From Escherichia coli (GTDB lineage: Bacteria > Pseudomonadota > Gammaproteobacteria > Enterobacterales > Enterobacteriaceae): 64,000 bases of DNA. A model generated the notes under the pieces. It saw nothing but the letters and a program-made list of their open reading frames with translations. It ran no database searches and was not told the origin of the DNA. Where the stretch lies: the NCBI RefSeq assembly GCF_024700885.2, contig NZ_CP117016.1; one strand, 5' to 3'. The translations under genes and the position numbers were made by a program. Numbering within the stretch: position 1 is the first letter of the stretch; every line of letters begins with the position of its first letter. Shown here piece after piece: positions 35,970-49,714 of this stretch.

Positions 35970-36734
35970 ATGAAAGATGAACGTCGCCCTATTTGCGAAG
36001 TGGTTGCAGAGAGTATCGAACGGTTAATTATCGACGGCGTACTGAAGGTCGGTCAGCCGCTTCCCTCGGAACGTCGACTGTGTGAAAAGCTCGGCTTCTC
36101 ACGCTCCGCACTGCGTGAAGGGCTGACCGTGCTGCGCGGGCGCGGGATTATTGAAACAGCGCAGGGTCGCGATTCTCGTGTCGCACGGCTTAATCGGGTG
36201 CAGGACACCAGCCCGCTGATCCATCTGTTCAGTACGCAGCCGCGAACGCTGTATGATCTGCTCGACGTTCGCGCATTACTGGAGGGCGAATCGGCAAGGC
36301 TGGCGGCAACGCTGGGAACCCAGGCTGATTTTGTTGTGATAACCCGCTGTTATGAAAAAATGCTCGCCGCCAGTGAGAACAACAAAGAGATTTCGCTGAT
36401 CGAACATGCGCAGTTGGATCACGCTTTCCATCTCGCCATTTGTCAGGCTTCTCACAATCAGGTGCTGGTGTTTACACTGCAATCATTGACCGACTTGATG
36501 TTTAATTCAGTGTTTGCCAGCGTAAATAATCTCTACCATCGACCACAGCAAAAAAAGCAGATCGATCGCCAGCATGCGCGGATCTACAACGCGGTGTTGC
36601 AGCGGCTGCCGCACGTCGCCCAGCGCGCAGCACGCGATCATGTGCGGACCGTGAAAAAGAATCTCCACGATATCGAGCTGGAAGGTCACCATTTGATTCG
36701 CTCGGCGGTGCCGCTGGAGATGAACCAGAGTTAG
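35970..36734 (+). CDS. glcC: Glycolate operon transcriptional activator (GntR/FadR family)
   Basis: N-terminal winged HTH (RLCEKLGFSRSALREGLTVL); divergent from glcD; start taken at MKDERRPI (about 254 aa). Confidence 0.88.
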   Translation: MKDERRPICEVVAESIERLIIDGVLKVGQPLPSERRLCEKLGFSRSALREGLTVLRGRGIIETAQGRDSRVARLNRVQDTSPLIHLFSTQPRTLYDLLDVRALLEGESARLAATLGTQADFVVITRCYEKMLAASENNKEISLIEHAQLDHAFHLAICQASHNQVLVFTLQSLTDLMFNSVFASVNNLYHRPQQKKQIDRQHARIYNAVLQRLPHVAQRAARDHVRTVKKNLHDIELEGHHLIRSAVPLEMNQS

Positions 36735-36740
36735 CTGGTA

Positions 36741-37883
36741 TTAAATCTGCTTTTCATACAATCGGTAACGCTTGTACGGCTCCGCCCCAATGCGTTCCAG
36801 CATGTTATTCATGCCTGTATTGGTTTCGAGGATCCATGACATTTCCAGCGCATCGATCTTCCGGCGGGCAAACGGATCGCGTAAGGCTTCAATCAATAAC
36901 AGCGCAATCACCGGGCCGATGCGGCTAAACTGATACTCGTCCCGCACGCCCATCAGCGGTACTCGCGCAGTTCGCACACCGCTGACTTTTAAACGCCACA
37001 GCAATTTTGCCCAGCCGAAGGGAAAGAGCGATCCGTTCAGATCGGCAATCGCCTCGTTGATGTTTGGCAAGCCGACAATAAACGCGCAGGGTGCAGAATC
37101 AATCTCAGCGATGTAGATCATATCGTCCGGCACCAGATATTTAAGTTGATCGCCCATGGTCGCGAATTCATGTTCGGTAAACGGCACAAATCCCCAGTTG
37201 TGCTGCCAGCCAGAGTTGAAAATCTCACGCAGGATCTGCATCTCTTCGGCAAACCGCTGGCGATTGATGCAGCGAATGGTCACCTTCTTACGCACCTGAT
37301 CCATCAGTTTTTTTAGCGCCGGAGAGAAAGTGAGATCGGTTCGCTGCATCCACCACGCCAGTAAATCAATGCCTTTGTGATAACCCAATTGTTCAATATG
37401 CGCGGCATACCACGGTTTGCCATGTGGCATCATCGCACAGGGTGGTGTGTCAAAACCTTCAATCAGTAATCCGCTTTCCTGATTGATATTCAGGCTGAAA
37501 GGCCCGCTGATCTTACTTGCACCTTGTGACTTCAACCACGCTTCCGCTGCGCCAAACAACGCGGCAAAAACCTGCGGATCATCAATGGCGTCAATCATGC
37601 CGAAATGACCGGTATCTTCGCCGTAACGCTCACGGTGCAAGGTATCGATTTGCGCGGTAATTCGCCCAACTATCTGCCCGGCTTTTTTTGCCACCCACGC
37701 CTGCCAGATGATATGGTCCGTCCCCGGATTCTTCGTAGACAAATGCTCGCTGCGTTCAATGAATAAAGGGGGTATCCAGTTTGGATCATCGGGATAAAGT
37801 GATGACGGAAAAGCGATAAATGCCTTAAGGTCATTTTTATTAATTACTTTTTCAATTTTAATCATCAGCAGATCGCATTCCAT
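36741..37883 (-). CDS. yghO: YghO-family protein, candidate acyl-CoA N-acyltransferase (GNAT-like fold); possible lipid N-acyltransferase
   Basis: About 375-380 aa soluble protein divergent from the lipid operon; family assignment from memory; function inferred from genomic context only. Confidence 0.5.
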   Translation of the reverse strand: MECDLLMIKIEKVINKNDLKAFIAFPSSLYPDDPNWIPPLFIERSEHLSTKNPGTDHIIWQAWVAKKAGQIVGRITAQIDTLHRERYGEDTGHFGMIDAIDDPQVFAALFGAAEAWLKSQGASKISGPFSLNINQESGLLIEGFDTPPCAMMPHGKPWYAAHIEQLGYHKGIDLLAWWMQRTDLTFSPALKKLMDQVRKKVTIRCINRQRFAEEMQILREIFNSGWQHNWGFVPFTEHEFATMGDQLKYLVPDDMIYIAEIDSAPCAFIVGLPNINEAIADLNGSLFPFGWAKLLWRLKVSGVRTARVPLMGVRDEYQFSRIGPVIALLLIEALRDPFARRKIDALEMSWILETNTGMNNMLERIGAEPYKRYRLYEKQI

Positions 37884-38159
37884 ATCTCTGTGGATAACAA
37901 ATAATTAACGGTGACAAACAGATTGCAACAGCAACGAACGGCACCTTAATAATCAACCCAATGAATACAAACGACGAATAAATAGTATTTATTAATGATT
38001 ACGATAAGGTTAGAGACTACACAGAAGCGCCACAATGCCTTTTGTCGATTTAAGGCGACCGGACAAGGCTTCTTCTTAATATATTCACAAATTAAATATC
38101 ATTCACAATAAAAACAAAAAAACTCAAACTCATTATTTAAATCAATGTTCATTTTCACA

Positions 38160-38227
38160 CTGATGAAAATACTATCTCATTTATCTTTTATGCCTATATA
38201 ATCCACCGCATTATTGTCATTTTATTT
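38160..38227 (+). promoter_or_regulatory. Candidate promoter for the lipid-biosynthesis operon in the AT-rich yghO-divergent intergenic region
   Basis: TATAAT hexamer at about 38197-38202, some 25-55 nt upstream of the candidate start codons; AT-rich upstream tract. Confidence 0.3.
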
Positions 38228-39979
38228 TTGATATCCAATTTTTTCGTGGTGTATATGTCTAATAAAATCTTTACGCATTCCCTACCTATGCGCTATGCCG
38301 ATTTTCCAACGCTGGTTGATGCTTTGGACTACGCCGCTCTGAGTAGCGCCGGAATGAATTTTTATGACAGACGTTGCCAACTTGAAGATCAACTGGAATA
38401 TCAGACGTTAAAAGCGCGTGCCGAAGCTGGTGCGAAGCGGTTGTTATCGCTGAACCTGAAAAAAGGCGATCGCGTGGCGCTGATTGCCGAAACCAGTAGC
38501 GGGTTCGTAGAGGCTTTTTTTTCCTGCCAGTATGCCGGCTTAGTCGCCGTCCCGTTGGCGATTCCAATGGGCGTCGGTCAGCGGGATTCCTGGAGCGCCA
38601 AACTGCAGGGTTTACTGGCAAGTTGCCAGCCCGCAGCCATTATCACTGGTGATGAGTGGTTACCGCTGGTCAATGCCGCGACGCATAACAACAACCCCGA
38701 ATTACATGTTTTAAGCCACGCCTGGTTTAAGACATTACCGGAAGCCGATGTTGCGCTCCAGCGTCCAGTTCCGAACGATATCGCCTACCTCCAGTACACT
38801 TCCGGCAGCACCCGTTTTCCCCGTGGCGTCATTATCACCCATCGCGAAGTGATGGCTAATCTACGTGCTATAAGCCACGATGGCATTAAATTACGCCCTG
38901 GCGACCGCTGCGTCTCCTGGCTGCCTTTCTACCATGATATGGGACTGGTCGGCTTTCTCCTGACCCCCGTCGCCACGCAGCTTTCAGTAGATTATTTGCG
39001 CACTCAGGATTTTGCCATGCGTCCTCTGCAATGGCTTAAATTGATCAGTAAAAATCGCGGCACCGTTTCCGTTGCGCCGCCGTTTGGCTATGAATTGTGC
39101 CAGCGCCGCGTGAATGAAAAAGATCTCGCTGAACTGGATCTTTCCTGCTGGCGCGTCGCTGGTATTGGTGCAGAACCCATCTCCGCAGAACAACTCCATC
39201 AATTCGCTGAATGTTTCCGTCAGGTCAACTTTGACGATAAAACTTTCATGCCGTGCTACGGACTGGCAGAAAATGCGCTGGCTGTCAGCTTCTCTGATGA
39301 AGCTTCCGGGGTTGTGGTTAACGAAGTGGATCGCGACATCCTCGAATATCAGGGCAAAGCCGTCGCGCCGGATGCTGAAACACGCGCCGTATCGACTTTC
39401 GTCAACTGCGGTAAAGCGTTGCCGGAACATGGCATTGAAATCCGCAATGAAGCAGGTATGCCGGTCGCGGAACGTGTGGTAGGCCATATTTGCATCTCCG
39501 GCCCCAGCCTGATGAGCGGTTACTTTGGCGACCAGATTTCACAAGACGAGATTGCCGCGACGGGCTGGTTAGACACCGGCGACCTCGGTTATCTGCTGGA
39601 CGGTTATCTGTATGTCACCGGACGCATTAAAGATCTGATTATTATTCGTGGCCGTAATATCTGGCCGCAGGATATTGAATATATTGCGGAACAGGAACCG
39701 GAAATTCATTCTGGCGATGCGATTGCTTTTGTTACCGCCCAGGAAAAAATCATTTTGCAGATCCAGTGTCGGATCAGCGATGAAGAACGTCGCGGGCAGC
39801 TTATCCACGCGCTGGCAGCACGGATCCAAAGCGAATTTGGCGTGACCGCGGCTATCGATCTGTTGCCGCCCCACAGTATTCCCCGAACGTCCTCCGGCAA
39901 GCCTGCCCGTGCGGAAGCGAAAAAACGTTATCAGAAGGCTTATGCTGCAAGCCTTCATGTGCAGGAATCCCTGGCATGA
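38228..39979 (+). CDS. Fatty acyl-AMP ligase / acyl-ACP synthetase (adenylate-forming enzyme)
   Basis: About 575-583 aa; AMP-binding signature LQYTSGSTRFPRGV; C-terminal lysine region; the true start may be the ATG at 38255. Confidence 0.8.
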   Translation: MISNFFVVYMSNKIFTHSLPMRYADFPTLVDALDYAALSSAGMNFYDRRCQLEDQLEYQTLKARAEAGAKRLLSLNLKKGDRVALIAETSSGFVEAFFSCQYAGLVAVPLAIPMGVGQRDSWSAKLQGLLASCQPAAIITGDEWLPLVNAATHNNNPELHVLSHAWFKTLPEADVALQRPVPNDIAYLQYTSGSTRFPRGVIITHREVMANLRAISHDGIKLRPGDRCVSWLPFYHDMGLVGFLLTPVATQLSVDYLRTQDFAMRPLQWLKLISKNRGTVSVAPPFGYELCQRRVNEKDLAELDLSCWRVAGIGAEPISAEQLHQFAECFRQVNFDDKTFMPCYGLAENALAVSFSDEASGVVVNEVDRDILEYQGKAVAPDAETRAVSTFVNCGKALPEHGIEIRNEAGMPVAERVVGHICISGPSLMSGYFGDQISQDEIAATGWLDTGDLGYLLDGYLYVTGRIKDLIIIRGRNIWPQDIEYIAEQEPEIHSGDAIAFVTAQEKIILQIQCRISDEERRGQLIHALAARIQSEFGVTAAIDLLPPHSIPRTSSGKPARAEAKKRYQKAYAASLHVQESLA

Positions 39980-40890
39980 ATCAAACTGTCGCGGTGACGG
40001 GCGCTACCGGGTTTATCGGTAAATATATTATCGATAACCTGCTCGCCCGCGGCTTTCACGTTCGCGCATTGACGCGTACTGCCCGCGCTCACGTCAATGA
40101 CAATCTCATCTGGGTGCGCGGTTCTCTGGAAGATACTCATTCACTTAGCGAACTGGTTGCCGGAGCCAGCGCGGTGGTCCATTGCGCCGGACAAGTGCGC
40201 GGGCACAAAGAAGAGATTTTTACCCGCTGTAACGTTGACGGCAGCCTGCGACTGATGCAAGCGGCAAAAGAGAGCGGCTTTTGCCAACGTTTTCTGTTTA
40301 TCTCTTCGCTGGCGGCGCGCCATCCCGAACTCTCCTGGTACGCAAATTCCAAACACGTCGCCGAACAACGGCTGACCGCAATGGCTGACGAAATTACGCT
40401 GGGCATTTTTCGCCCGACAGCCGTGTATGGTCCCGGCGATAAAGAGTTAAAACCGCTGTTTGACTGGATGCTGCGCGGCCTACTGCCACGACTTGGTGCG
40501 CCAGATACACAGCTCTCTTTCCTGCACGTCACCGATTTCGCGCAAGCCGTGGGGCAGTGGTTAAGCGCCGAAACTGTACAGACGCAAACCTATGAATTAT
40601 GCGATGGCGTCGCCGGCGGCTATGACTGGCAACGCGTAAGACAGCTTGCCGCCGACGCCCGTTGCGGTTCCGTTCGAATGGTTGGTATTCCTCTGTCGGT
40701 ACTCACCTGCCTTGCGGATATCAGTACTGCGTTGAGTCGCCTGGCAGGTAAAGAACCTATGCTGACCCGCTCGAAAATTCGTGAATTAACCCACGCCGAC
40801 TGGTCGGCAAATAATAACCGTATTTCTGAAGATATTAATTGGTTTCCCGGGATTAGCCTGGAACACGCATTACGCAACGGGCTATTTTGA
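39976..40890 (+). CDS. NAD(P)-dependent epimerase/dehydratase-family reductase (extended SDR), candidate 3-keto reductase
   Basis: 304 aa; Rossmann motif VTGATGFIGKYI; YxxxK catalytic motif (YANSK); start overlaps upstream stop (ATGA). Confidence 0.75.
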   Translation: MNQTVAVTGATGFIGKYIIDNLLARGFHVRALTRTARAHVNDNLIWVRGSLEDTHSLSELVAGASAVVHCAGQVRGHKEEIFTRCNVDGSLRLMQAAKESGFCQRFLFISSLAARHPELSWYANSKHVAEQRLTAMADEITLGIFRPTAVYGPGDKELKPLFDWMLRGLLPRLGAPDTQLSFLHVTDFAQAVGQWLSAETVQTQTYELCDGVAGGYDWQRVRQLAADARCGSVRMVGIPLSVLTCLADISTALSRLAGKEPMLTRSKIRELTHADWSANNNRISEDINWFPGISLEHALRNGLF

Positions 40891-40921
40891 TTGTCTTGTT
40901 TAAAGGTGTGTTAACGTTTCT

Positions 40922-41170
40922 ATGGTAAATCGTGAAATAGTAATGGATTACATCCTTTCCTGTTTACAGGATTTGGTCGAAAACGGTGTGGAAATTAAGC
41001 CCGACAGCGATCTCGTCAACGATCTTGGCCTGGAGTCGATCAAAGTGATGGATCTCTTAATGATGCTGGAAGACAGATTCGATATTTCCATTCCTATTAA
41101 TATTCTGCTGGATGTCAAAACCCCTGCGCAATTAATGGAAACACTACTTCCATGGCTGGAGAATAAATAA
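40922..41170 (+). CDS. Dedicated acyl carrier protein
   Basis: 82 aa acidic protein with the phosphopantetheine attachment motif DLGLESIKVMDL. Confidence 0.75.
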   Translation: MVNREIVMDYILSCLQDLVENGVEIKPDSDLVNDLGLESIKVMDLLMMLEDRFDISIPINILLDVKTPAQLMETLLPWLENK

Positions 41171-42342
41171 TGGGGCTATACGATAAATATGCGCGCCTTG
41201 CTGGCGAGCGACTGCAATTTAGTGACAACGGGTTAACACCGTTTGGCACCTGTATTGATGAAGTGTATTCCGCCACCGAAGGTCGGATTGGCAATAAAAA
41301 AGTGATTCTGGCCGGGACCAATAATTATCTCGGTTTAACCTTTAATCATGATGCCATCGCCGAAGGTCAGGCAGCGTTAGCGGCCCAAGGCACCGGCACC
41401 ACCGGTTCTCGTATGGCAAACGGCAGTTATGCGCCGCATCTGGCGTTAGAGAAAGAGATCGCCGAGTTTTTTAATCGCCCTACCGCTATCGTTTTTTCAA
41501 CCGGTTATACCGCTAATTTAGGCGTCATCAGCGCACTTGCCGACCATAACGCCGTGGTGTTACTGGATGCCGACAGCCACGCCAGTATTTATGACGCCTG
41601 TTCTCTCGGTGGCGCGGAAATTATTCGTTTCCGCCATAACGATGCTAAAGATCTGGAACGGCGCATGGTTCGCCTCGGTGAACGGGCAAAAGAGGCGATT
41701 ATCATCGTTGAAGGCATCTACAGTATGCTCGGTGACGTTGCGCCGCTGGCGGAAATTGTTGATATCAAACGTCGTCTCGGTGGTTATTTGATTGTCGATG
41801 AAGCGCATTCGTTTGGCGTGTTAGGCGCAACGGGGCGCGGACTGGCTGAAGCCGTTGGCGTTGAAGATGATGTGGATATTATCGTTGGTACCTTCAGTAA
41901 AAGTCTGGCCTCGATTGGCGGTTTTGCTGTCGGTTCGGAAGCGATGGAAGTGTTGCGCTACGGCAGCCGCCCGTATATTTTTACCGCCTCTCCTTCTCCG
42001 TCCTGCATTGCGACCGTGCGCTCGTCGTTAAGAACCATTGCCTCACAACCAGAGTTGCGGCAAAAGCTGATGGATAATGCCAACCATCTGTATGACGGTC
42101 TGCAAAAACTGGATTATGAGTTAAGTTCACATATTAGCCCGGTAGTGCCAGTAATAATCGGTTCGAAAGAGGAAGGTTTACGCATCTGGCGCGAGCTTAT
42201 TTCGCTGGGCGTTTATGTGAATCTTATCCTGCCACCTGCCGCGCCTGCAGGCATCACGCTGCTGCGCTGTAGCGTAAACGCTGCCCACAGTCGTGAGCAA
42301 ATTGATGCCATCATTCAAGCGTTCGCTACTCTGAAGCAGTAA
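41170..42342 (+). CDS. PLP-dependent alpha-oxoamine synthase (serine palmitoyltransferase / 8-amino-7-oxononanoate synthase family)
   Basis: 390 aa; PLP-lysine motif GTFSKSLASIGGF and DEAHSFG motif typical of the AOS family; start overlaps the ACP stop. Confidence 0.8.
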   Translation: MGLYDKYARLAGERLQFSDNGLTPFGTCIDEVYSATEGRIGNKKVILAGTNNYLGLTFNHDAIAEGQAALAAQGTGTTGSRMANGSYAPHLALEKEIAEFFNRPTAIVFSTGYTANLGVISALADHNAVVLLDADSHASIYDACSLGGAEIIRFRHNDAKDLERRMVRLGERAKEAIIIVEGIYSMLGDVAPLAEIVDIKRRLGGYLIVDEAHSFGVLGATGRGLAEAVGVEDDVDIIVGTFSKSLASIGGFAVGSEAMEVLRYGSRPYIFTASPSPSCIATVRSSLRTIASQPELRQKLMDNANHLYDGLQKLDYELSSHISPVVPVIIGSKEEGLRIWRELISLGVYVNLILPPAAPAGITLLRCSVNAAHSREQIDAIIQAFATLKQ

Positions 42343-42348
42343 TGTGAG

Positions 42349-42378
42349 CCCGCTGTGGTGTTGCGCCACGGCGGGTTT
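42349..42378 (+). terminator. Rho-independent terminator at the end of the + strand biosynthetic operon, overlapping the 3' end of the convergent permease gene
   Basis: GC-rich inverted repeat cccgctgtgg-N7-ccacggcggg followed by TTT. Confidence 0.55.
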
Positions 42379-43456
42379 AATGTTGTCTGTCATACCAATA
42401 CACCAGGCTCAACGCCACCAGCACAAACGCTACCGGTAAACCGAGCGCGGTAACAGGTGCGCTCAACGCAAATAGCAATCCCAGATTGACCATGATTTGA
42501 TAGCTGATCCAGGTAAGTAAGCCCACGATGACGCCTACAGCGAGACGGCTACCCATCCCAGGCGAACGCGGGGCACTAAAGGTAAACGGCACAGCCAGCA
42601 AAATCATCGCCAGGGTCAGGATGGGTTGTCCCAGTTTTTCCCACAGTGCAAGGCGGTATTCGCTGCTGGGTTGCCCAGTTTCCTGCAAATAATGGATGTA
42701 ATGATTAAGTTGACGGACAGAAAAAGTATTTCCCGGCATCGATAACTCTTCAAGATTCATACTGGTGAAGGCCGATTGCCAGGCAAGATTATCTGATGTT
42801 TCCAGCGTTTCTTTGCCATTCAACCATTTTTTATGATTCACACCATGCAGGATCCATGTTTTGTCGTCTTCAATGGAGGCACTGCGTGCAAAAATGTAGG
42901 ATTCGAGCGAGAGATCGTCGCGATAATGAAATATCTCCACGCCCACAGGCTGGCCCTGCTCGTTCAGCGATTTCACCGTCACAAATTCATTACCGCGCCT
43001 GGCCCAAAGCATATTGCCGGTAATGTCATCGTCCTCCCCCAACGCGGTGGCAGTCGATTTGATTTGCAGCGCCTGTTGCTGCAATGGCGACGCCACCCAC
43101 TCATCTATCGCGCCTAACGAAACAGTCCACAATATCCCGGCAACCAGCGCCACCAGTGCAATACGGAAGATAGAAAACCCAGTGCTGCGAATGGCGGTAA
43201 GCTCACTGTTTTTCGATAACTGCCCCAGGCCAACAATCCCTCCCAATAATGCGATAAACGGCGAAAGTTCGACCAGTGTACGCGGTAAGGTCATCAGCAC
43301 CACCAGCACCGCCTGAGTCCAGCGATAACCGCCCGGGCTGACATCATCCAGTTCGTTAATCAGGTTGAAGGTGGTAAAAAGCGGCAGCAATAGCCCTGCG
43401 GCGGCGGCAAAACCGAGAAAGAGATGACGGATTAAATAGCGACTGAAAACATTCAT
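42377..43456 (-). CDS. LptG-like permease (YjgP/YjgQ family) paralogue
   Basis: About 359 aa from MNVFSRYLIRHLF; six-TM permease architecture with a periplasmic domain, as in LptF/LptG; start overlaps the upstream gene stop (ATGA). Confidence 0.7.
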   Translation of the reverse strand: MNVFSRYLIRHLFLGFAAAAGLLLPLFTTFNLINELDDVSPGGYRWTQAVLVVLMTLPRTLVELSPFIALLGGIVGLGQLSKNSELTAIRSTGFSIFRIALVALVAGILWTVSLGAIDEWVASPLQQQALQIKSTATALGEDDDITGNMLWARRGNEFVTVKSLNEQGQPVGVEIFHYRDDLSLESYIFARSASIEDDKTWILHGVNHKKWLNGKETLETSDNLAWQSAFTSMNLEELSMPGNTFSVRQLNHYIHYLQETGQPSSEYRLALWEKLGQPILTLAMILLAVPFTFSAPRSPGMGSRLAVGVIVGLLTWISYQIMVNLGLLFALSAPVTALGLPVAFVLVALSLVYWYDRQH

Positions 43457-44523
43457 CGGGAAAATTTCTGCAGCAAAGAGAAGTCGCGTGCGACCAGCAT
43501 CAGCAGGCCCATTAGCATGAGTCCGGGTACTAACCACAAACCAGGAATGAGGGGAATCGCGCCGTTAGCCACCAGCGTACGGCAGACGTCGCCGCCATAA
43601 AAAATGGCAATAAACAGCAACGTCAGTGGCAATAATGTTGAAAATCGCCCTTGCCGCGGTTTTACCCGACTTAATGAAATGGCCAGCAGCGCCATCAACA
43701 ATGCTGTCAGGCCACGGCTTTGTCGCCATTGCAGTTCGGCATGATCGGCTGGAAAGACGGAGCGCGCCAGCTCCGTGACCGATTTCGCTTTGCGTTTGAC
43801 GTTAGGGCTTTGATCCAGCGGATTCAGATGTAATTGCAGATTACGGTAGATCTGTTCGTTGTCGTCACGCCCCTGATGATCGAGAAGATAGGCAGTGCCG
43901 TTGTGCAACATAACAGTCGGTTTCTCAGGTGATGGGTCAACCACATCAACCGAACGGGCGCGGAAAATGCGGGTTCGATTGGCAGTAGAAGTATAAATCA
44001 GCGCGTCAGTCAGGCGATTATTATCCTGATCAACCGTCTGCGAAAGGATCATTCGTCCGTTATCGTTAGTGTTAAATTTCTTTGCCCGCAACTGGCGAAC
44101 ATCCAGCTCCGACTGTGACTGTTGCTCCAGTTGATAAATCTGCGCATAAGCCCACGGACGACCATACATCGACAGAAGGGTGACAAAAATACTTAGCGGT
44201 ATCGCCAGATAAAGAACGGCTTTGTACAAGCGTCCCGGACTGCCCCCCGCCGCGGAGATAGCGGTAATTTCCGAGTCGGTATACATTTGCCCTAGCGTCA
44301 CGCCAACTGAAGCATATAGTCCAACAGGTAACAGCATCTCCAGTGCAATCAGCACTTTGTAGAAAACGATATCCAGCACAACATCAAGAGCTAATGTCCC
44401 ATTTGCCGCTTCGGTCAGATAACGCTGTGCGGAGTAGCTGGCGAAAATAAAGATCAGAAACCCGACGATAATCAGCACCAGACGGCGCGTACCACGCATG
44501 ATGTAGTGTTCAACCAGCTTCAT
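43453..44523 (-). CDS. LptF-like permease (YjgP/YjgQ family) paralogue
   Basis: 356 aa; N-terminus MKLVEHYIMRGTRRLVLIIVGFLIF resembles LptF/LptG N-termini; paired with the downstream LptG-like gene. Confidence 0.7.
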   Translation of the reverse strand: MKLVEHYIMRGTRRLVLIIVGFLIFIFASYSAQRYLTEAANGTLALDVVLDIVFYKVLIALEMLLPVGLYASVGVTLGQMYTDSEITAISAAGGSPGRLYKAVLYLAIPLSIFVTLLSMYGRPWAYAQIYQLEQQSQSELDVRQLRAKKFNTNDNGRMILSQTVDQDNNRLTDALIYTSTANRTRIFRARSVDVVDPSPEKPTVMLHNGTAYLLDHQGRDDNEQIYRNLQLHLNPLDQSPNVKRKAKSVTELARSVFPADHAELQWRQSRGLTALLMALLAISLSRVKPRQGRFSTLLPLTLLFIAIFYGGDVCRTLVANGAIPLIPGLWLVPGLMLMGLLMLVARDFSLLQKFSR

Positions 44524-44553
44524 CTCGCTAACGCCCTAAATCCTTTGAATTTT

Positions 44554-45117
44554 TTATTCATTGATCAGTTTCTGCGCCAGCGCAATGACATGATCTACCT
44601 CTTCCGGCGTCAGGCTGCCGTCCTTTGCCCACTGAATTTGCCCGTCTTTATTCAGCACCAGAATGGTTGAACTCTGCTCCGGCAACCGCCAGGCAACGCG
44701 TCCCAGTCCATTGCCGTCAATAACGAATTGCGCCCACGGATAGCGGCGTTTATTTTTTTCGATTTTGCCAACGACAAAATAGCCAGTACCAAAGATGGCA
44801 TCATCGGTGTTCACAATGGTGGTGGGCTGAAAACGATCCTGCGGAAAGTTTGCCGCTTCAACCGCTTTAATTAACAGTGAGTTCTTTTTCTTCGCCGACT
44901 TACGCCCGGCGATATACTGAATAATGCGGACTTTTCCCGCCAGCTGTGTGCTGTTCCACTTTTGGTAGTGAATTTCGTCGTCGCTATTCAGAAGCAACTC
45001 ACCGCCTTCCTGGATATAAACAGGGGTAACCGTTTTGCCAGTGACGAAATTGTGTGCCTGCACACCCGGGGCTAAGAGCATGATAATCAGCGCAATAATC
45101 AAACGAGATGACATCAT
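44554..45117 (-). CDS. Periplasmic protein with signal peptide (possibly YtfJ-like family)
   Basis: 187 aa; cleavable signal MMSSRLIIALIIMLLAPGVQA; family assignment tentative. Confidence 0.5.
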   Translation of the reverse strand: MMSSRLIIALIIMLLAPGVQAHNFVTGKTVTPVYIQEGGELLLNSDDEIHYQKWNSTQLAGKVRIIQYIAGRKSAKKKNSLLIKAVEAANFPQDRFQPTTIVNTDDAIFGTGYFVVGKIEKNKRRYPWAQFVIDGNGLGRVAWRLPEQSSTILVLNKDGQIQWAKDGSLTPEEVDHVIALAQKLINE

Positions 45118-45125
45118 TGCTCCGG

Positions 45126-45950
45126 TTATAGCGGAAAACGCGAAATCAGCAGCTCTAAGCGCTGGCGAATATCGCTATCCAGCGCCACCGGTGCATCATA
45201 CGACTGGCGGTTTTCCATATCATCCGCCACCATGTCGTCGTGTTTATCCCCCATCAGGCCATTAATGGCGGCGAGGAAGCGGGAAATCTGTAACGCTTCT
45301 TTATTTTCAGGATCAAGCGATCTTAAGGTGTCGTAATAAGAAACCTGCTGGCTGATGATTTTTCGCACATCATGAAATTCCCTGCCGGTTAGTCGCGGTT
45401 TGGCAATTATCTCTTTCAGGGTATGCATTTGCTTTTGCCGATAGGCAATAAAACCGCTTACGCTTTCTAACTGGCTATGGCGTAATGAATAGTTCACCAA
45501 CGACCAGACCGGAGAGCTTAAATAAACCCGTAACAGGTTGCCGTAATACGACACAATATTTTTCTTACCGTTACGAAAGCCGTCCTGAAAACGCCCCAAA
45601 AAAACGGTCGTTTTGCCGAATAAAAATCCGGCCTGATGCTTCTTTAAATACAGCCGTTGCGCAAAGCGCAGATGCTTGTAGCGCGCTCGCATGTATTTAT
45701 ACTTTTTGCGCTCGTCTGTCGTCAGTTCATCGCCTTTCGCCTGTTTGCGGATTAAACGCAGTAGCTCCTGACGATTAACACCATCCAGCCAGAATTTCAG
45801 GCATAACGCGTAATTATCATGGATGATTTCGGTGGTACAACTTAGTGCGATAGTCGGCGGCAAACTGACCTGTGCATCAACGACATCATCTTCTTCAATC
45901 GCAACAAATAGACGCTCGCTAGCCTCAAGCGGGAAATATTTTCTCATCAT
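45126..45950 (-). CDS. Hypothetical cytoplasmic protein, basic and Lys/Arg-rich
   Basis: 274-aa ORF tightly packed between the flippase gene and the periplasmic protein gene; no motif recognised by eye. Confidence 0.5.
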   Translation of the reverse strand: MMRKYFPLEASERLFVAIEEDDVVDAQVSLPPTIALSCTTEIIHDNYALCLKFWLDGVNRQELLRLIRKQAKGDELTTDERKKYKYMRARYKHLRFAQRLYLKKHQAGFLFGKTTVFLGRFQDGFRNGKKNIVSYYGNLLRVYLSSPVWSLVNYSLRHSQLESVSGFIAYRQKQMHTLKEIIAKPRLTGREFHDVRKIISQQVSYYDTLRSLDPENKEALQISRFLAAINGLMGDKHDDMVADDMENRQSYDAPVALDSDIRQRLELLISRFPL

Positions 45951-47299
45951 CAGGATTTCTCTCCGGCTGCGTTATAAAGCAAGGAATGGCGCTGAAAAAA
46001 TGCCTTTAAGGTTGGAATTAGCGAGAGCACCACATCCAGACATTGCCCAGCGAAGTAAGCAAATGCAGCCCCCAGCACGCCAAACAGATGACAGAACATG
46101 AACAGCAATACGATGTAGCCGATTGAGGCGATGGTTTGCGCCACGAGAAAAGCACGCTGTTTTCCCGCCATCAATAGCAATGACTCCTGTGGGAAGCCCA
46201 GCATTGAAATCACAATTGCGCCTAGCATCACCTGAATCAGGTCATACGCTTCGAGATACTTAACGCCAAACACCAGCGAAATGAGTGGCTTGCCGACGAT
46301 CAACACCACGAGCGCCACCAGAATACCGATTCCGCCCGCCAGTAAACCGGACTTCACGCCTAACAACCACGGCCTGGTGGTGCGCGGATCTAAACGCATC
46401 ACCTCTGGGTAAAAACTTTTACCCAGCAAACCCGCTGGCGTTCCGGCGGCGTCGAAGAATGTCATGGCGATTTTAAATAACCCGGCGGCAGCGGGTCCTA
46501 ACACGATCCCCACCAACACTGTGCTGCACGAGTTACGCGCCGACCAGATGGAGTGGGCAATGTTGGTTGACCAGACAAAACTCCACGCGCCTTTAATGTG
46601 TCGGGCAGACTCAAACAGATTCAATTTGAAGGCGTTATGGATATTTCTGCGGCGTAATTCGCGCGCGGCAAACCACCAGTACATGGTGCCGCCAACCAGA
46701 TTCGATGCGTACCAGGCAATAACAAAACCCGCAAAACCAAAATCAAAATACCAGGCTACGACGCTCCCCGCTGCGCGCAGAAAAGGTTTCGTCGCCTGCT
46801 GTACAGCAATCAAATCGAAGCGATCTACCGCACGCAGAATGCCGGTCGGCGTGGAGGAAGCCATTGAAGGAATGAGCGTGCAATACAGCGCTGCCAGCCA
46901 AAAGCTTTGGTCATCCAGACCTAATGAATGGGAAAGAAAAGGGAGTAAGGCAATGCCGCCGACAATCGCCACCGCGCCGCTGACGATATCCAGCGAGAAG
47001 GAAAATGAGACGACATTGCGGAATTGCTGCGGATTATTGTTGGTTAATGCTGGTGTTCCGTACTGCACCACCAACTGCCATGTCTGAAACTTAATAAAAT
47101 CGCTGATCGACTTGGCGTACGATTGCACAATCACCAGTACGCCAAACATGGCGGGCGTCATCCCTTTACCGGCACACGAGAGCGCCAACAGACCTAGCAA
47201 GGCGCTCACGACATTACTGGAGCCTAACCAGGCGCTATTGCGAATAATGGTGCGAAACGCGCCATCTGCAAACCAATGTTTGATGTTAAAACCCGCCAA
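45950..47299 (-). CDS. yghQ: MOP-superfamily (Wzx-like) polytopic flippase/exporter
   Basis: 449-aa ORF, highly hydrophobic with many predicted TM helices; I recall the K-12 counterpart as yghQ; start codon uncertain. Confidence 0.65.
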   Translation of the reverse strand: MAGFNIKHWFADGAFRTIIRNSAWLGSSNVVSALLGLLALSCAGKGMTPAMFGVLVIVQSYAKSISDFIKFQTWQLVVQYGTPALTNNNPQQFRNVVSFSFSLDIVSGAVAIVGGIALLPFLSHSLGLDDQSFWLAALYCTLIPSMASSTPTGILRAVDRFDLIAVQQATKPFLRAAGSVVAWYFDFGFAGFVIAWYASNLVGGTMYWWFAARELRRRNIHNAFKLNLFESARHIKGAWSFVWSTNIAHSIWSARNSCSTVLVGIVLGPAAAGLFKIAMTFFDAAGTPAGLLGKSFYPEVMRLDPRTTRPWLLGVKSGLLAGGIGILVALVVLIVGKPLISLVFGVKYLEAYDLIQVMLGAIVISMLGFPQESLLLMAGKQRAFLVAQTIASIGYIVLLFMFCHLFGVLGAAFAYFAGQCLDVVLSLIPTLKAFFQRHSLLYNAAGEKS

Positions 47300-47344
47300 T
47301 TCAGCCTGACCTTATCGTTGATAGTAAAAAGTATCCCGCCAGCC

Positions 47345-48103
47345 TTAAGTTAAACTTCGGCGGTCAGAAACGATGGCAACCAGAGAAACCGCCTTCTGTG
47401 CCTGTTCCAGCACTTCGCTGTAGGGCGCTCTGGAATCAATCTCAAGAATTTTTGTGCCGTTATAGCCAATCGTCGACATGACGCCGATTTTGTCCTGCAG
47501 CTCGGCATAGTCATGGTCAGGCTTGCGGGAGATGGCAGTATCAATATCAATCCCCAAACGAATGATTAATTCAGGACGGTATTGCGCCATTTTTTGGTAT
47601 AAACGCCGTTCGCGCTGCGCCAGAAACATGCTGATTTTCCCGGTCGCACGTTCGACGCCGATCCCCGGTCCGTCATAATAAAAGCCCGAAATTTCAGCCT
47701 GCGGGAAGCGATCGCTGACCACCAGAACGCCACTTTGCGCCAGTCGCTGAACCTTGCGTAGATTCGCCATTCTTCGCAGCGAGAAGCAGTACATAATCAC
47801 CGCCGCCCATAGCGCTGGAGATTTGGTTTTCATGCTTTGGGTTTTCGAGGATTTGGCCGCCAGTCGCCGTTCGAGCCAGACGCCAACCAACGGCAATCGT
47901 TTGATTGTGTCGCCGTCTTCGCCCGAGAGCAGCCCCAGATAGCGCCGCTCGGTTTGCCAGTGTTGTTGCAGCGATTTCACCAGGTCGGTGGTCAGTGTGG
48001 ATTTACCGGTGCCATCACACCCGACCACCGCAATCAGCCCCGGAATGTAGTTGGGCTGCGGCACGGTTGTACTATTAACAGTTTGTGTTTGTAGTGCATC
48101 CAT
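47345..48103 (-). CDS. yghR: P-loop NTPase, kinase-like (YghR/S/T family)
   Basis: 252 aa; N-proximal Walker A VVGCDGTGKST; DRF motif; no ABC signature motif seen. Confidence 0.7.
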   Translation of the reverse strand: MDALQTQTVNSTTVPQPNYIPGLIAVVGCDGTGKSTLTTDLVKSLQQHWQTERRYLGLLSGEDGDTIKRLPLVGVWLERRLAAKSSKTQSMKTKSPALWAAVIMYCFSLRRMANLRKVQRLAQSGVLVVSDRFPQAEISGFYYDGPGIGVERATGKISMFLAQRERRLYQKMAQYRPELIIRLGIDIDTAISRKPDHDYAELQDKIGVMSTIGYNGTKILEIDSRAPYSEVLEQAQKAVSLVAIVSDRRSLT

Positions 48104-48134
48104 TCGTTAAATCATCCCCTATCCATTTTGGTGA

Positions 48135-48848
48135 TCAGGAAAGCACGGCGTGAATTGCGCGTAGTGACGCTTGCATAATTTCATCGGCTGGTTGCCGACC
48201 ATCCAGTTCAAGGATCTTTGCGCCATTGAATGTCAGTTGCGGCGTAACGGCGATTTTTTCCTGTAACGCTGCCAGTTGGTGGTCAGGTTTACGCGAAAAC
48301 GCGGTTTGTTCATCAATGCCAAGACGAATCAACAATACGGGCAAATAAGACGCCATCCATTGGTACAGCTTCAGCTCGCGCTGCCTTAACATTTTTATCC
48401 AACCGTTACCGCCCGTGGTTTTTGCCAATTGCGGGCCATCAAAGCGAAAACCCGGCACTTCAACCTGCGGGTAGCGGTCGGTGATGAGCAGATAGCCTTG
48501 CTGGCTTTTACACAACATTTTGCGAAACTTATACGCCCGCCAGCAGGAAAGCAGATAGATAACCAGCGCAGTAATATTGCCAGGCGGTGTTGAGGGCTTT
48601 TCGTGCACATGTGCCGCTTTACTTCGCAGATAACGCCCAAAAGGTGCGCCAATAACAGGGAGCTGTGAAATCCATTCGCCAATTCGCCCGGACGATTGCC
48701 CGAGATAAATGTGTTCTGTTGGCATTCTTGCTGCCAGTTCATTTACCAGGCTTGCCGTGAGGGTCGATTTACCTGAACCATCACATCCTACAATGGCAAT
48801 AACACGCACTGGCGTGGAATTAATTATTGACATATTACGTTGATTCAC
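48135..48848 (-). CDS. yghS: P-loop NTPase, kinase-like (YghR/S/T family paralogue)
   Basis: 237 aa; Walker A IVGCDGSGKST; DRYP motif; same architecture as yghR. Confidence 0.7.
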   Translation of the reverse strand: MNQRNMSIINSTPVRVIAIVGCDGSGKSTLTASLVNELAARMPTEHIYLGQSSGRIGEWISQLPVIGAPFGRYLRSKAAHVHEKPSTPPGNITALVIYLLSCWRAYKFRKMLCKSQQGYLLITDRYPQVEVPGFRFDGPQLAKTTGGNGWIKMLRQRELKLYQWMASYLPVLLIRLGIDEQTAFSRKPDHQLAALQEKIAVTPQLTFNGAKILELDGRQPADEIMQASLRAIHAVLS

Positions 48849-49021
48849 GAAAAACCCGGCAGCAAATAATGTATTGAATATTACGTGGTCCGTGCTCAGA
48901 ATATCCGTTCAACCTTATTGTGACAATGGTTAATTGTGACATTGACCTGAATTACGCTTTCATAAAAACATATTAACCAAATAAATATTTTTAATGGATA
49001 TTCAAATTAAAGGATATATTC

Positions 49022-49714
49022 ATGCAGTCAATAACACCTCCATTAATTGCCGTTATTGGTAGCGATGGTTCAGGCAAGTCAACGGTGTGTGAACATCTCA
49101 TTACCGTTGTCGAAAAATATGGTGCTGCCGAAAGAGTTCATTTAGGAAAACAAGCCGGAAATGTCGGTCGTGCAGTGACAAAATTACCGTTGATGGGAAA
49201 ATCCTTACATAAAACAATTGAACGAAATCAGGTGAAAACAGCAAAAAAATTGCCTGGCCCTGTTCCGGCGCTGGTAATTACAGCGTTTGTCGCCCGTCGC
49301 TTACTGCGCTTTCGTCATATGCTTGCCTGTCGTCGTCGCGGGTTAATTGTTCTAACCGACCGTTATCCTCAGGACCAAATTCCTGGCGCTTACGATGGTA
49401 CAGTGTTCCCACCTAACGTTGAAGGCGGCCGGTTTGTCTCATGGCTGGCAAGCCAGGAACGTAAAGCATTTCACTGGATGGCGAGCCATAAGCCTGATCT
49501 GGTCATCAAACTCAATGTTGACCTTGAAGTTGCCTGCGCGCGTAAACCCGACCATAAACGGGAATCGCTGGCGAGGAAGATTGCAATAACGCCACAGTTA
49601 ACCTTTGGTGGTGCACAACTGGTTGATATCGATGCCAATCAGCCACTGGAAAAGGTGCTGGTTGATGCAGAAAAAGCGATTACGGATTTTATGACCGCGC
49701 GTGGTTATCACTAG
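49022..49714 (+). CDS. yghT: P-loop NTPase, kinase-like (YghR/S/T family paralogue)
   Basis: 230 aa; Walker [16 protein letters not shown] motif; divergent from yghS. Confidence 0.7.

Follow-up and report, generated by a model that had tools for sequence, protein, structure and literature searches.

YghO of Escherichia coli, encoded beside serine palmitoyltransferase, is probably a tandem-GNAT ceramide synthase of the bacterial type

What does a predicted acyltransferase do next to the gene for serine palmitoyltransferase in Escherichia coli, the textbook bacterium with only glycerophospholipids and lipopolysaccharide? The question is raised by yghO, an unbroken ATG-initiated open reading frame (ORF) of 380 codons on the minus strand at positions 36741..37883 of a 64,000-nucleotide stretch of E. 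coli DNA (contig NZ_CP117016.1 of RefSeq assembly GCF_024700885.2; the whole stretch is called the window below), which is annotated in RefSeq and predicted to encode a tandem-GNAT acyltransferase. An earlier note on this DNA had proposed that yghO encodes the lipid N-acyltransferase of a ceramide pathway; its coordinates, strand, size of about 380 amino acids and divergence from a biosynthetic operon all agree with the ORF list and RefSeq. YghO is probably orthologous to the bacterial ceramide synthase of Caulobacter crescentus, called bCerS, CerS or Aca (CC_1154/CCNA_01212). The data consist of the ORF, the predicted fold, homology, a conserved neighbourhood, domain fusions and purifying selection. 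The assignment has already been published as a homology-based prediction (Padilla-Gómez et al., 2022), to which the present analysis adds a high-confidence tandem-GNAT model, synteny counts across phyla, two fusions with lipid enzymes, ratios of nonsynonymous to synonymous substitution rates (dN/dS) and the exact boundaries of the K-12 deletion.

YghO aligns over 374/374 residues, with 44% identity and an E value of 2e-107, with its homologue in Caulobacter sp. UNC358MFTsu5.1, which was used in this comparison in place of C. crescentus CC_1154. The comparison with bacterial ceramide synthases suggested by the earlier note thus came out in favour of its proposal. In a published BLAST comparison, CC_1154 itself and E. 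coli ECD_02850 share 44% identity (E 1e-107, 98% coverage), and the pair is listed as 'aca: CC_1154, yghO ECD_02850', an acyl-CoA N-acyltransferase orthologue, by Padilla-Gómez et al. (2022; PMC9386255). CC_1154 is the same gene as CCNA_01212 and bcerS/cerS, and Caulobacter genetics shows that dihydroceramide formation needs it. In the Caulobacter sp. genome, the homologue lies 8 kb from aasR-cerR-acpR-spt, in the gene order of C. crescentus from CC_1165 to CC_1154. It is the full-length identity to the Caulobacter homologue, the cross-phylum clustering described below and the Caulobacter genetics that link YghO to ceramide synthesis.

The fold of YghO becomes visible at the level of the family, which comprises 6490 clusters (50% identity) at E<=0.001 and 1119 at E<=1e-30, the latter nearly all of 370-400 amino acids. 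Among the 91 members of the family alignment, the Pfam GNAT model PF00583 is reached by nine at E<=0.001 and by 37 at E<=0.1. Positions 303-379 of the family profile align with motif A/B of two solved GNATs, 3tt2 at an E value of 0.003 and 2ge3 at 0.009; at the motif A loop, Q/R-x-x-G-x-G/A, the profile reads 'lGvrkeyrksrlgaglaall' against 'VGVRRPWRGR----GIALALL' of 3tt2, and E. coli YghO itself has GVRDEYQFSRIGPVIALL, in columns weakly conserved in the family. The AlphaFold2 model built from the 91-member alignment is a globular alpha/beta structure in which two GNAT domains cover the entire chain, with a predicted local distance difference test score (pLDDT) of 97.0, a predicted template modelling score (pTM) of 0.93 and 371/374 residues above a pLDDT of 90. 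The closest structures found by Foldseek in the PDB are acetyltransferases that act on amino sugars and other small molecules, with 11-17% identity, and family members in AFDB50 have the same fold with a template modelling (TM) score above 0.95. The acyl-CoA N-acyltransferase-like family proposed in the earlier note is therefore upheld at the family level, by the predicted two-GNAT fold and by the PF00583 and motif A/B signal, and the fold prediction that it had named as a check returned a GNAT fold and not the DNA-binding fold that it had set out as contrary evidence. No hydrophobic segment or transmembrane helix is predicted in YghO (maximum 19-residue Kyte-Doolittle window, 1.36), in line with the solubility claimed there, and the protein, of about 374 amino acids in two GNAT domains, is in all likelihood cytoplasmic and either soluble or peripherally bound to the membrane. 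The most conserved block of the family, (ND)AWxxNWGFVP at 216-228, opens the C-terminal GNAT domain, in which E341, N349, K365 and Y367 are conserved in the family alignment as well, and the N-terminal GNAT domain carries the conserved motifs GRI(S/T)A, to which the conserved R68 belongs, GxFG and GPxxxSxNxExGLLxxGFDxPP.

The neighbourhood was sampled at 80 related loci from gamma-, beta-, alpha- and delta-proteobacteria, Nitrospirae and Gemmatimonadetes, 50 of them with full 10-kb flanks. Contigs were scanned with the pattern AWxxNWG[FYA][VLI]P, by which Enterobacterales were missed because E. coli has GWQHNWGFVP, and a Serratia contig was added. When the proteins of the window were searched against the 80 loci by tblastn, AasR was found at 44, Spt at 40, AcpR at 35, CerR at 34, LptG2 at 49 and LptF2 at 45. 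At least one of spt, aasR, cerR, acpR and lptF2/G2 lies within 10 kb at 68 of the 80 loci and at 46 of the 50 full-size ones (92%); this frequency, together with a distance of 370 bp between yghO and aasR-cerR-acpR-spt in the window, accords with the place near spt that the earlier note gives to the gene for the N-acylating enzyme of bacterial ceramide pathways. The head-to-head layout of yghO and aasR recurs at 23 of the 44 loci having aasR, and that of Serratia liquefaciens is the same as in E. coli. Two gene fusions were found in the family. In P0132 (630 amino acids; L087 8001-9893), a fatty-acid hydroxylase domain (PF04116) is joined to the YghO domain, on a 3.8-Mb contig where acyl carrier protein and ketoacyl-synthase genes follow. 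In P0191 (940 amino acids; L088 8001-10823), the YghO domain is joined to a fatty acyl-AMP ligase (FAAL); its contig holds many fragmented genes, and this fusion is only suggestive and could have arisen during assembly.

Loci such as those of Pseudomonas, Nitrosomonas and Nitrospira carry an lptF2-lptG2 pair some 2 kb downstream of their yghO homologue, an arrangement which suggests that yghO and lptF2G2 form a tight functional unit. Directly 3' of the S. liquefaciens yghO homologue is a gene for a DgkA-type lipid kinase (L084 10354-10716; PF01219, 120 amino acids), which may be either the housekeeping dgkA or a lipid kinase linked to the pathway.

Several points weigh against the ceramide synthase assignment. 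As a single sequence, YghO gives zero matches to Pfam even at E<=10 and zero matches to NCBIfam, and phmmer finds only chance matches (E>0.1) among PDB sequences. The family profile carries a 4-residue insertion in the Q/RxxGxG/A loop, which is poorly conserved in the family. The structures nearest to the predicted model are not long-chain acyltransferases, and the fold alone fixes neither chain length nor acceptor. No sphingolipid gene lies within 10 kb at 12 of the 80 loci, and in Nitrosomonas only lptF2/G2 adjoin the homologue, spt being outside the 10-kb flanks. In the literature search, PMC9386255 was the sole paper found that pairs yghO with ceramide, and no report of native sphingolipid production by E. 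coli was found.

Fold and gene context support the enzymatic role that the earlier note had derived from the intact frame, but intactness itself is no valid ground for it. From these data we infer the catalytic activity of YghO, its acyl donor, the sequence in which acylation and reduction occur and expression of the pathway in E. coli, as follows. AasR would load a fatty acid on AcpR, and Spt would join acyl-AcpR and serine to 3-ketosphinganine. The C2 amine of this long-chain base would then be acylated by YghO, for which acyl-CoA is the most likely donor of the long-chain acyl group. The 3-keto group would be reduced by the short-chain dehydrogenase/reductase (SDR) CerR, and LptF2/LptG2, with LptB, would take the lipid out of the inner membrane. 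In MshD and other tandem GNATs, one domain holds the thioester and the interface between the domains forms the acceptor pocket. By analogy, the C-terminal GNAT domain of YghO, where motif A/B is kept, most likely binds the acyl thioester, and the conserved residues of the domain interface would constitute the acceptor site.

Is the gene maintained in E. coli? The yghO region is present at >=80% of a 1.8-kb query in 4148 of 5426 complete E. coli genomes, and a full-length copy is missing from about 24% of complete genomes. Among four alleles (those of the window, K-12 and two others; dS 0.07-0.11), dN/dS values calculated by the Nei-Gojobori method are 0.013-0.063, which indicates strong purifying selection on YghO. 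The insertion sequence (IS) IS5, 1194 bp long, stands in K-12 in place of window positions 37844-46230 (8387 bp). With this stretch, K-12 has lost the promoter and the first codons of yghO, all of aasR, cerR, acpR, spt, lptG2 and lptF2, one YtfJ-family gene, one gene for a hypothetical protein and yghQ at its 3' end. K-12 is thus without the whole sphingolipid cluster. In its YghO the first beta-strand is swapped for IS5-junction sequence and the remainder is 98% identical. The earlier note had taken K-12 yghO to be annotated as a disrupted, regulator-like gene; the removal by IS5 and the existence of entries named 'DNA-binding transcriptional regulator' agree with this in essence, but current RefSeq gives a 378-amino-acid protein with a foreign N-terminus, not a pseudogene. 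In E. coli ABWA45 (NZ_CP022154.1; L083 4866-7039), IS1 adjoins aasR on its upstream side; this strain is without yghO and the glc operon but keeps aasR-cerR-acpR-spt-lptG2-lptF2. The yghO locus seems prone to IS-mediated deletions.

These deletions, IS5 in K-12 and IS1 in ABWA45, and the share of genomes without a full-length copy agree with a cryptic pathway, in which yghO is intact, the genes are silent or used under rare conditions and no ceramide is formed in ordinary growth. E. coli is generally described as having no sphingolipids, in keeping with the outcome of the literature search. The divergent spacer between yghO and aasR (37884..38254, 370 bp, assigned to no strand), from which both yghO and the aasR operon are presumably transcribed, is AT-rich (GC about 0.39-0.44) and has no strong sigma-70 consensus: in a scan of 36600-38400 for sigma-70 promoters and terminators, sites were no more frequent than in shuffled sequence. 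A repeat search of the spacer revealed merely weak AT-rich inverted repeats and no clear operator, and an Rfam search of it gave zero matches. On the other side stand the strong purifying selection across divergent E. coli lineages, the retention of the gene in the 4148 genomes and the behaviour of BL21(DE3), which, given 3-ketosphinganine, forms sphinganine-like and ceramide-like products, 'possibly by intrinsic enzymes', which suggests that the downstream enzymes are expressed (PMC9386255). A cryptic pathway is a somewhat unlikely reading of these data, and it is compatible with the assignment of YghO as ceramide synthase.

It is rather unlikely that YghO is a ceramide synthase with a chemistry unlike that of Caulobacter, acylating sphinganine after the action of CerR or taking the acyl group from acyl-AcpR or an AasR adenylate. 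Reduction before acylation has also been proposed (PMC9386255). The N-terminus of E. coli CerR (39976-40020) has no obvious signal peptide, as judged by eye only, which would allow cytoplasmic reduction before acylation, and an acyl supply of its own for YghO would agree with the YghO-FAAL fusion P0191 and with the head-to-head arrangement conserved between yghO and aasR. In contrast to this reading by eye, Caulobacter CerR is reported to be periplasmic; oxidised ceramide accumulates there upon deletion of cerR, and these data favour cytoplasmic acylation of 3-ketosphinganine first and reduction by CerR after it. The fusion is weakened by the fragmented genes around it. As for the donor, Stankeviciute et al. 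in 2022 reportedly found bCerS to be active with acyl-CoA in vitro, which speaks against the other donors.

The main alternative to a ceramide synthase of either chemistry is an unrelated acetyltransferase, a GNAT that acts on an amino sugar, an antibiotic or a protein lysine and whose adjacency to spt is incidental. The best structural matches of YghO are indeed acetyl-CoA-dependent enzymes (for glucosamine, mycothiol, aminoglycosides and a clavulanate intermediate), YghO was among the candidate GNATs of a lysine-acetyltransferase screen, the 12 loci with no sphingolipid gene nearby fit, and the homologues are mostly called 'N-acetyltransferase' in databases. This function is hard to square with the cross-phylum synteny: clustering with spt/aasR/cerR/acpR/lptF2/G2 in at least six major lineages and at nearly all full-size loci is far beyond chance. 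The domains fused to YghO relatives belong to lipid enzymes, the structural matches share as little identity with YghO as stated above, and a Caulobacter member of the family is genetically needed for dihydroceramide. We consider the acetyltransferase very improbable.

That YghO regulates transcription of the neighbouring operon by binding DNA, as its divergent site, typical of local regulators, and some UniProt and NCBI names of E. coli entries ('DNA-binding transcriptional regulator', with scattered homologues called 'DNA-binding protein') might imply, is hardly conceivable, since two GNAT domains account for the whole chain at pLDDT >90 and no helix-turn-helix or other DNA-binding domain was found in Pfam or NCBIfam searches. 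Judged by the predicted structure, the regulator name is an inherited annotation without structural basis. The name 'dATP pyrophosphohydrolase', which also occurs within the AFDB50 family at TM >0.95, is equally unsupported, and such names are therefore regarded as inherited annotation noise. No NCBIfam model covers the YghO family, which constitutes an annotation gap. 'Protein YghO', 'DNA-binding transcriptional regulator' and 'dATP pyrophosphohydrolase' should be replaced by bCerS-type tandem-GNAT N-acyltransferase.

The yghO frame itself leaves a choice of start codon. The sequence in E. coli strain 1190 is identical and is annotated in RefSeq as 'yghO: protein YghO' (1143 nt); window positions 36500-38300 match this strain with 100% identity, and its gene order is glcC, yghO, fatty acyl-AMP ligase. 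The RefSeq start, ATG at 37883, gives 380 amino acids with the N-terminus MECDLLMIKIEK. An in-frame ATG at 37865 gives 374 amino acids with the N-terminus MIKIEK, the length and type of N-terminus of almost all yghO homologues outside E. coli, and homologues of other genera begin at the equivalent of 37865. The start codon is ambiguous between the two, and inspection by eye revealed a strong Shine-Dalgarno sequence before neither ATG. On the low-coordinate side, downstream, the end of glcC is 6 bp from the yghO stop codon.

Beyond the spacer, four genes of the predicted pathway follow on the plus strand. aasR (38255..39979), for a fatty acyl-AMP ligase or specialised acyl-ACP (acyl carrier protein) synthetase, is annotated in RefSeq and matches NCBIfam NF006624 with 871 bits, over the cut-off; its mechanical ORF start is TTG at 38228, as opposed to the RefSeq start at 38255. 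The cerR-like gene (39976..40890), identified by ORF, family match and RefSeq, encodes a reductase of the NAD-dependent epimerase/dehydratase (SDR) family, predicted to be the 3-keto reductase, and is called epi/ECD_02852 in PMC9386255; the protein starts with MNQTVAVTGATGFIG and has a Rossmann GxxGxxG motif from residue 8. acpR (40922..41170), supported by the same three lines, encodes a specialised acyl carrier protein of 82 amino acids, and this protein (ECD_02853) has been demonstrated to bear 4'-phosphopantetheine (PMC9386255). spt (41170..42342), for serine palmitoyltransferase, matches NCBIfam NF047599 with 595.8 bits against a cut-off of 500 and is named 'spt' in RefSeq. In E. coli BL21, AasR is a specialised acyl-ACP synthetase, AcpR is its carrier, and Spt prefers acyl-AcpR (PMC9386255). 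Convergent with spt are second copies of lptG and lptF (42377-44523), both on the minus strand and annotated in RefSeq: lptG2 (42377..43456; TIGR04408, 304 bits), for a candidate permease subunit of sphingolipid export, and its partner lptF2 (43453..44523; TIGR04407, 317 bits). LptF2/G2 of Caulobacter has been implicated in the export of sphingolipids, and the locus of E. coli UTI89 has been drawn as a 'sphingolipid operon' (bioRxiv 10.64898/2026.04.12.717747).

Farther on, at 44554-49714, are a YtfJ-family gene, a gene for a hypothetical protein of 274 amino acids, yghQ, encoding a flippase like those of the Wzx/polysaccharide-synthesis type, and yghR/yghS/yghT, encoding P-loop, thymidylate-kinase-like proteins. 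In S. liquefaciens, at L084 1-3980, yghQ-like and thymidylate-kinase-like genes also adjoin spt. yghQ, yghR/S/T and their neighbours may be head-group or transport genes of the sphingolipid pathway. The idea that yghR/S/T are counterparts of CpgB, the ceramide kinase of Caulobacter, was dropped; the two are set apart by descriptions alone, yghR/S/T being annotated as an ATP-binding protein and dTMP kinases and CpgB being described with conserved domains of the sphingosine-kinase type and a GGDG motif.

The presence of ceramide-pathway genes in E. coli has already been published; of greater interest is whether a sphingolipid is made and exported by natural strains of the species. Most isolates, BL21, UTI89 and many pathogens among them, have an intact yghO, the predicted ceramide synthase gene, next to spt, and this implies a capacity for sphingolipids in the species, lost in K-12. 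It is a tentative possibility that most natural E. coli, about three-quarters of complete genomes, have a complete and selectively maintained ceramide pathway with an LptF2/G2 exporter and place a sphingolipid in the outer membrane under some condition, the acyl group possibly coming from AcpR/AasR. If this is true, the IS5 deletion of K-12 hid the pathway from decades of E. coli lipid biochemistry, and such a lipid could influence outer-membrane properties, polymyxin sensitivity and host signalling.

Among known systems, bCerS/CerS/Aca of C. crescentus is alike in length (about 374-390 amino acids), YghO having no transmembrane segment, and the partners spt, acpR, aasR, cerR and lptF2/G2 are common to both. 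In E. coli the five synthesis genes lie within 6 kb and yghO is head-to-head with aasR, whereas in Caulobacter some 8 kb separate bcerS from spt, and bcerS adjoins lptG2/lptF2. The E. coli cluster has no adjacent cpgABC head-group genes as Caulobacter does, and yghQ/R/S/T are found there instead. The activity of bCerS is known genetically and biochemically, whereas that of E. coli YghO is predicted. The tandem GNATs MAB_4324 (7q3a), glucosamine N-acetyltransferase of C. acetobutylicum (5kf1), ORF14 (2wpw), MshD (1ozp) and Eis share the motif A/B signature of the C-terminal domain of YghO; they differ from it by an identity of 11-17%, YghO being 30-80 residues longer than its closest matches, and by the use of acetyl-CoA on sugars, thiols and aminoglycosides, while a long-chain donor and a lipid amine are predicted for YghO. 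N-myristoyltransferase (2p6e), a eukaryotic enzyme whose acceptor is the N-terminal glycine of a protein, is structurally less similar to YghO than the tandem acetyltransferases are. The net reaction predicted for YghO, in which an acyl thioester N-acylates a sphingoid base, is also that of the eukaryotic Lag1/CerS enzymes with a TLC domain. A synthase of this type was considered for YghO and rejected, as the protein has no hydrophobic segment, no Pfam TLC match and a GNAT fold. The eukaryotic enzymes are polytopic membrane proteins of the endoplasmic reticulum, whereas YghO is a predicted soluble alpha/beta GNAT protein of unrelated fold, and the relation between the two is one of functional convergence, not of a shared family.

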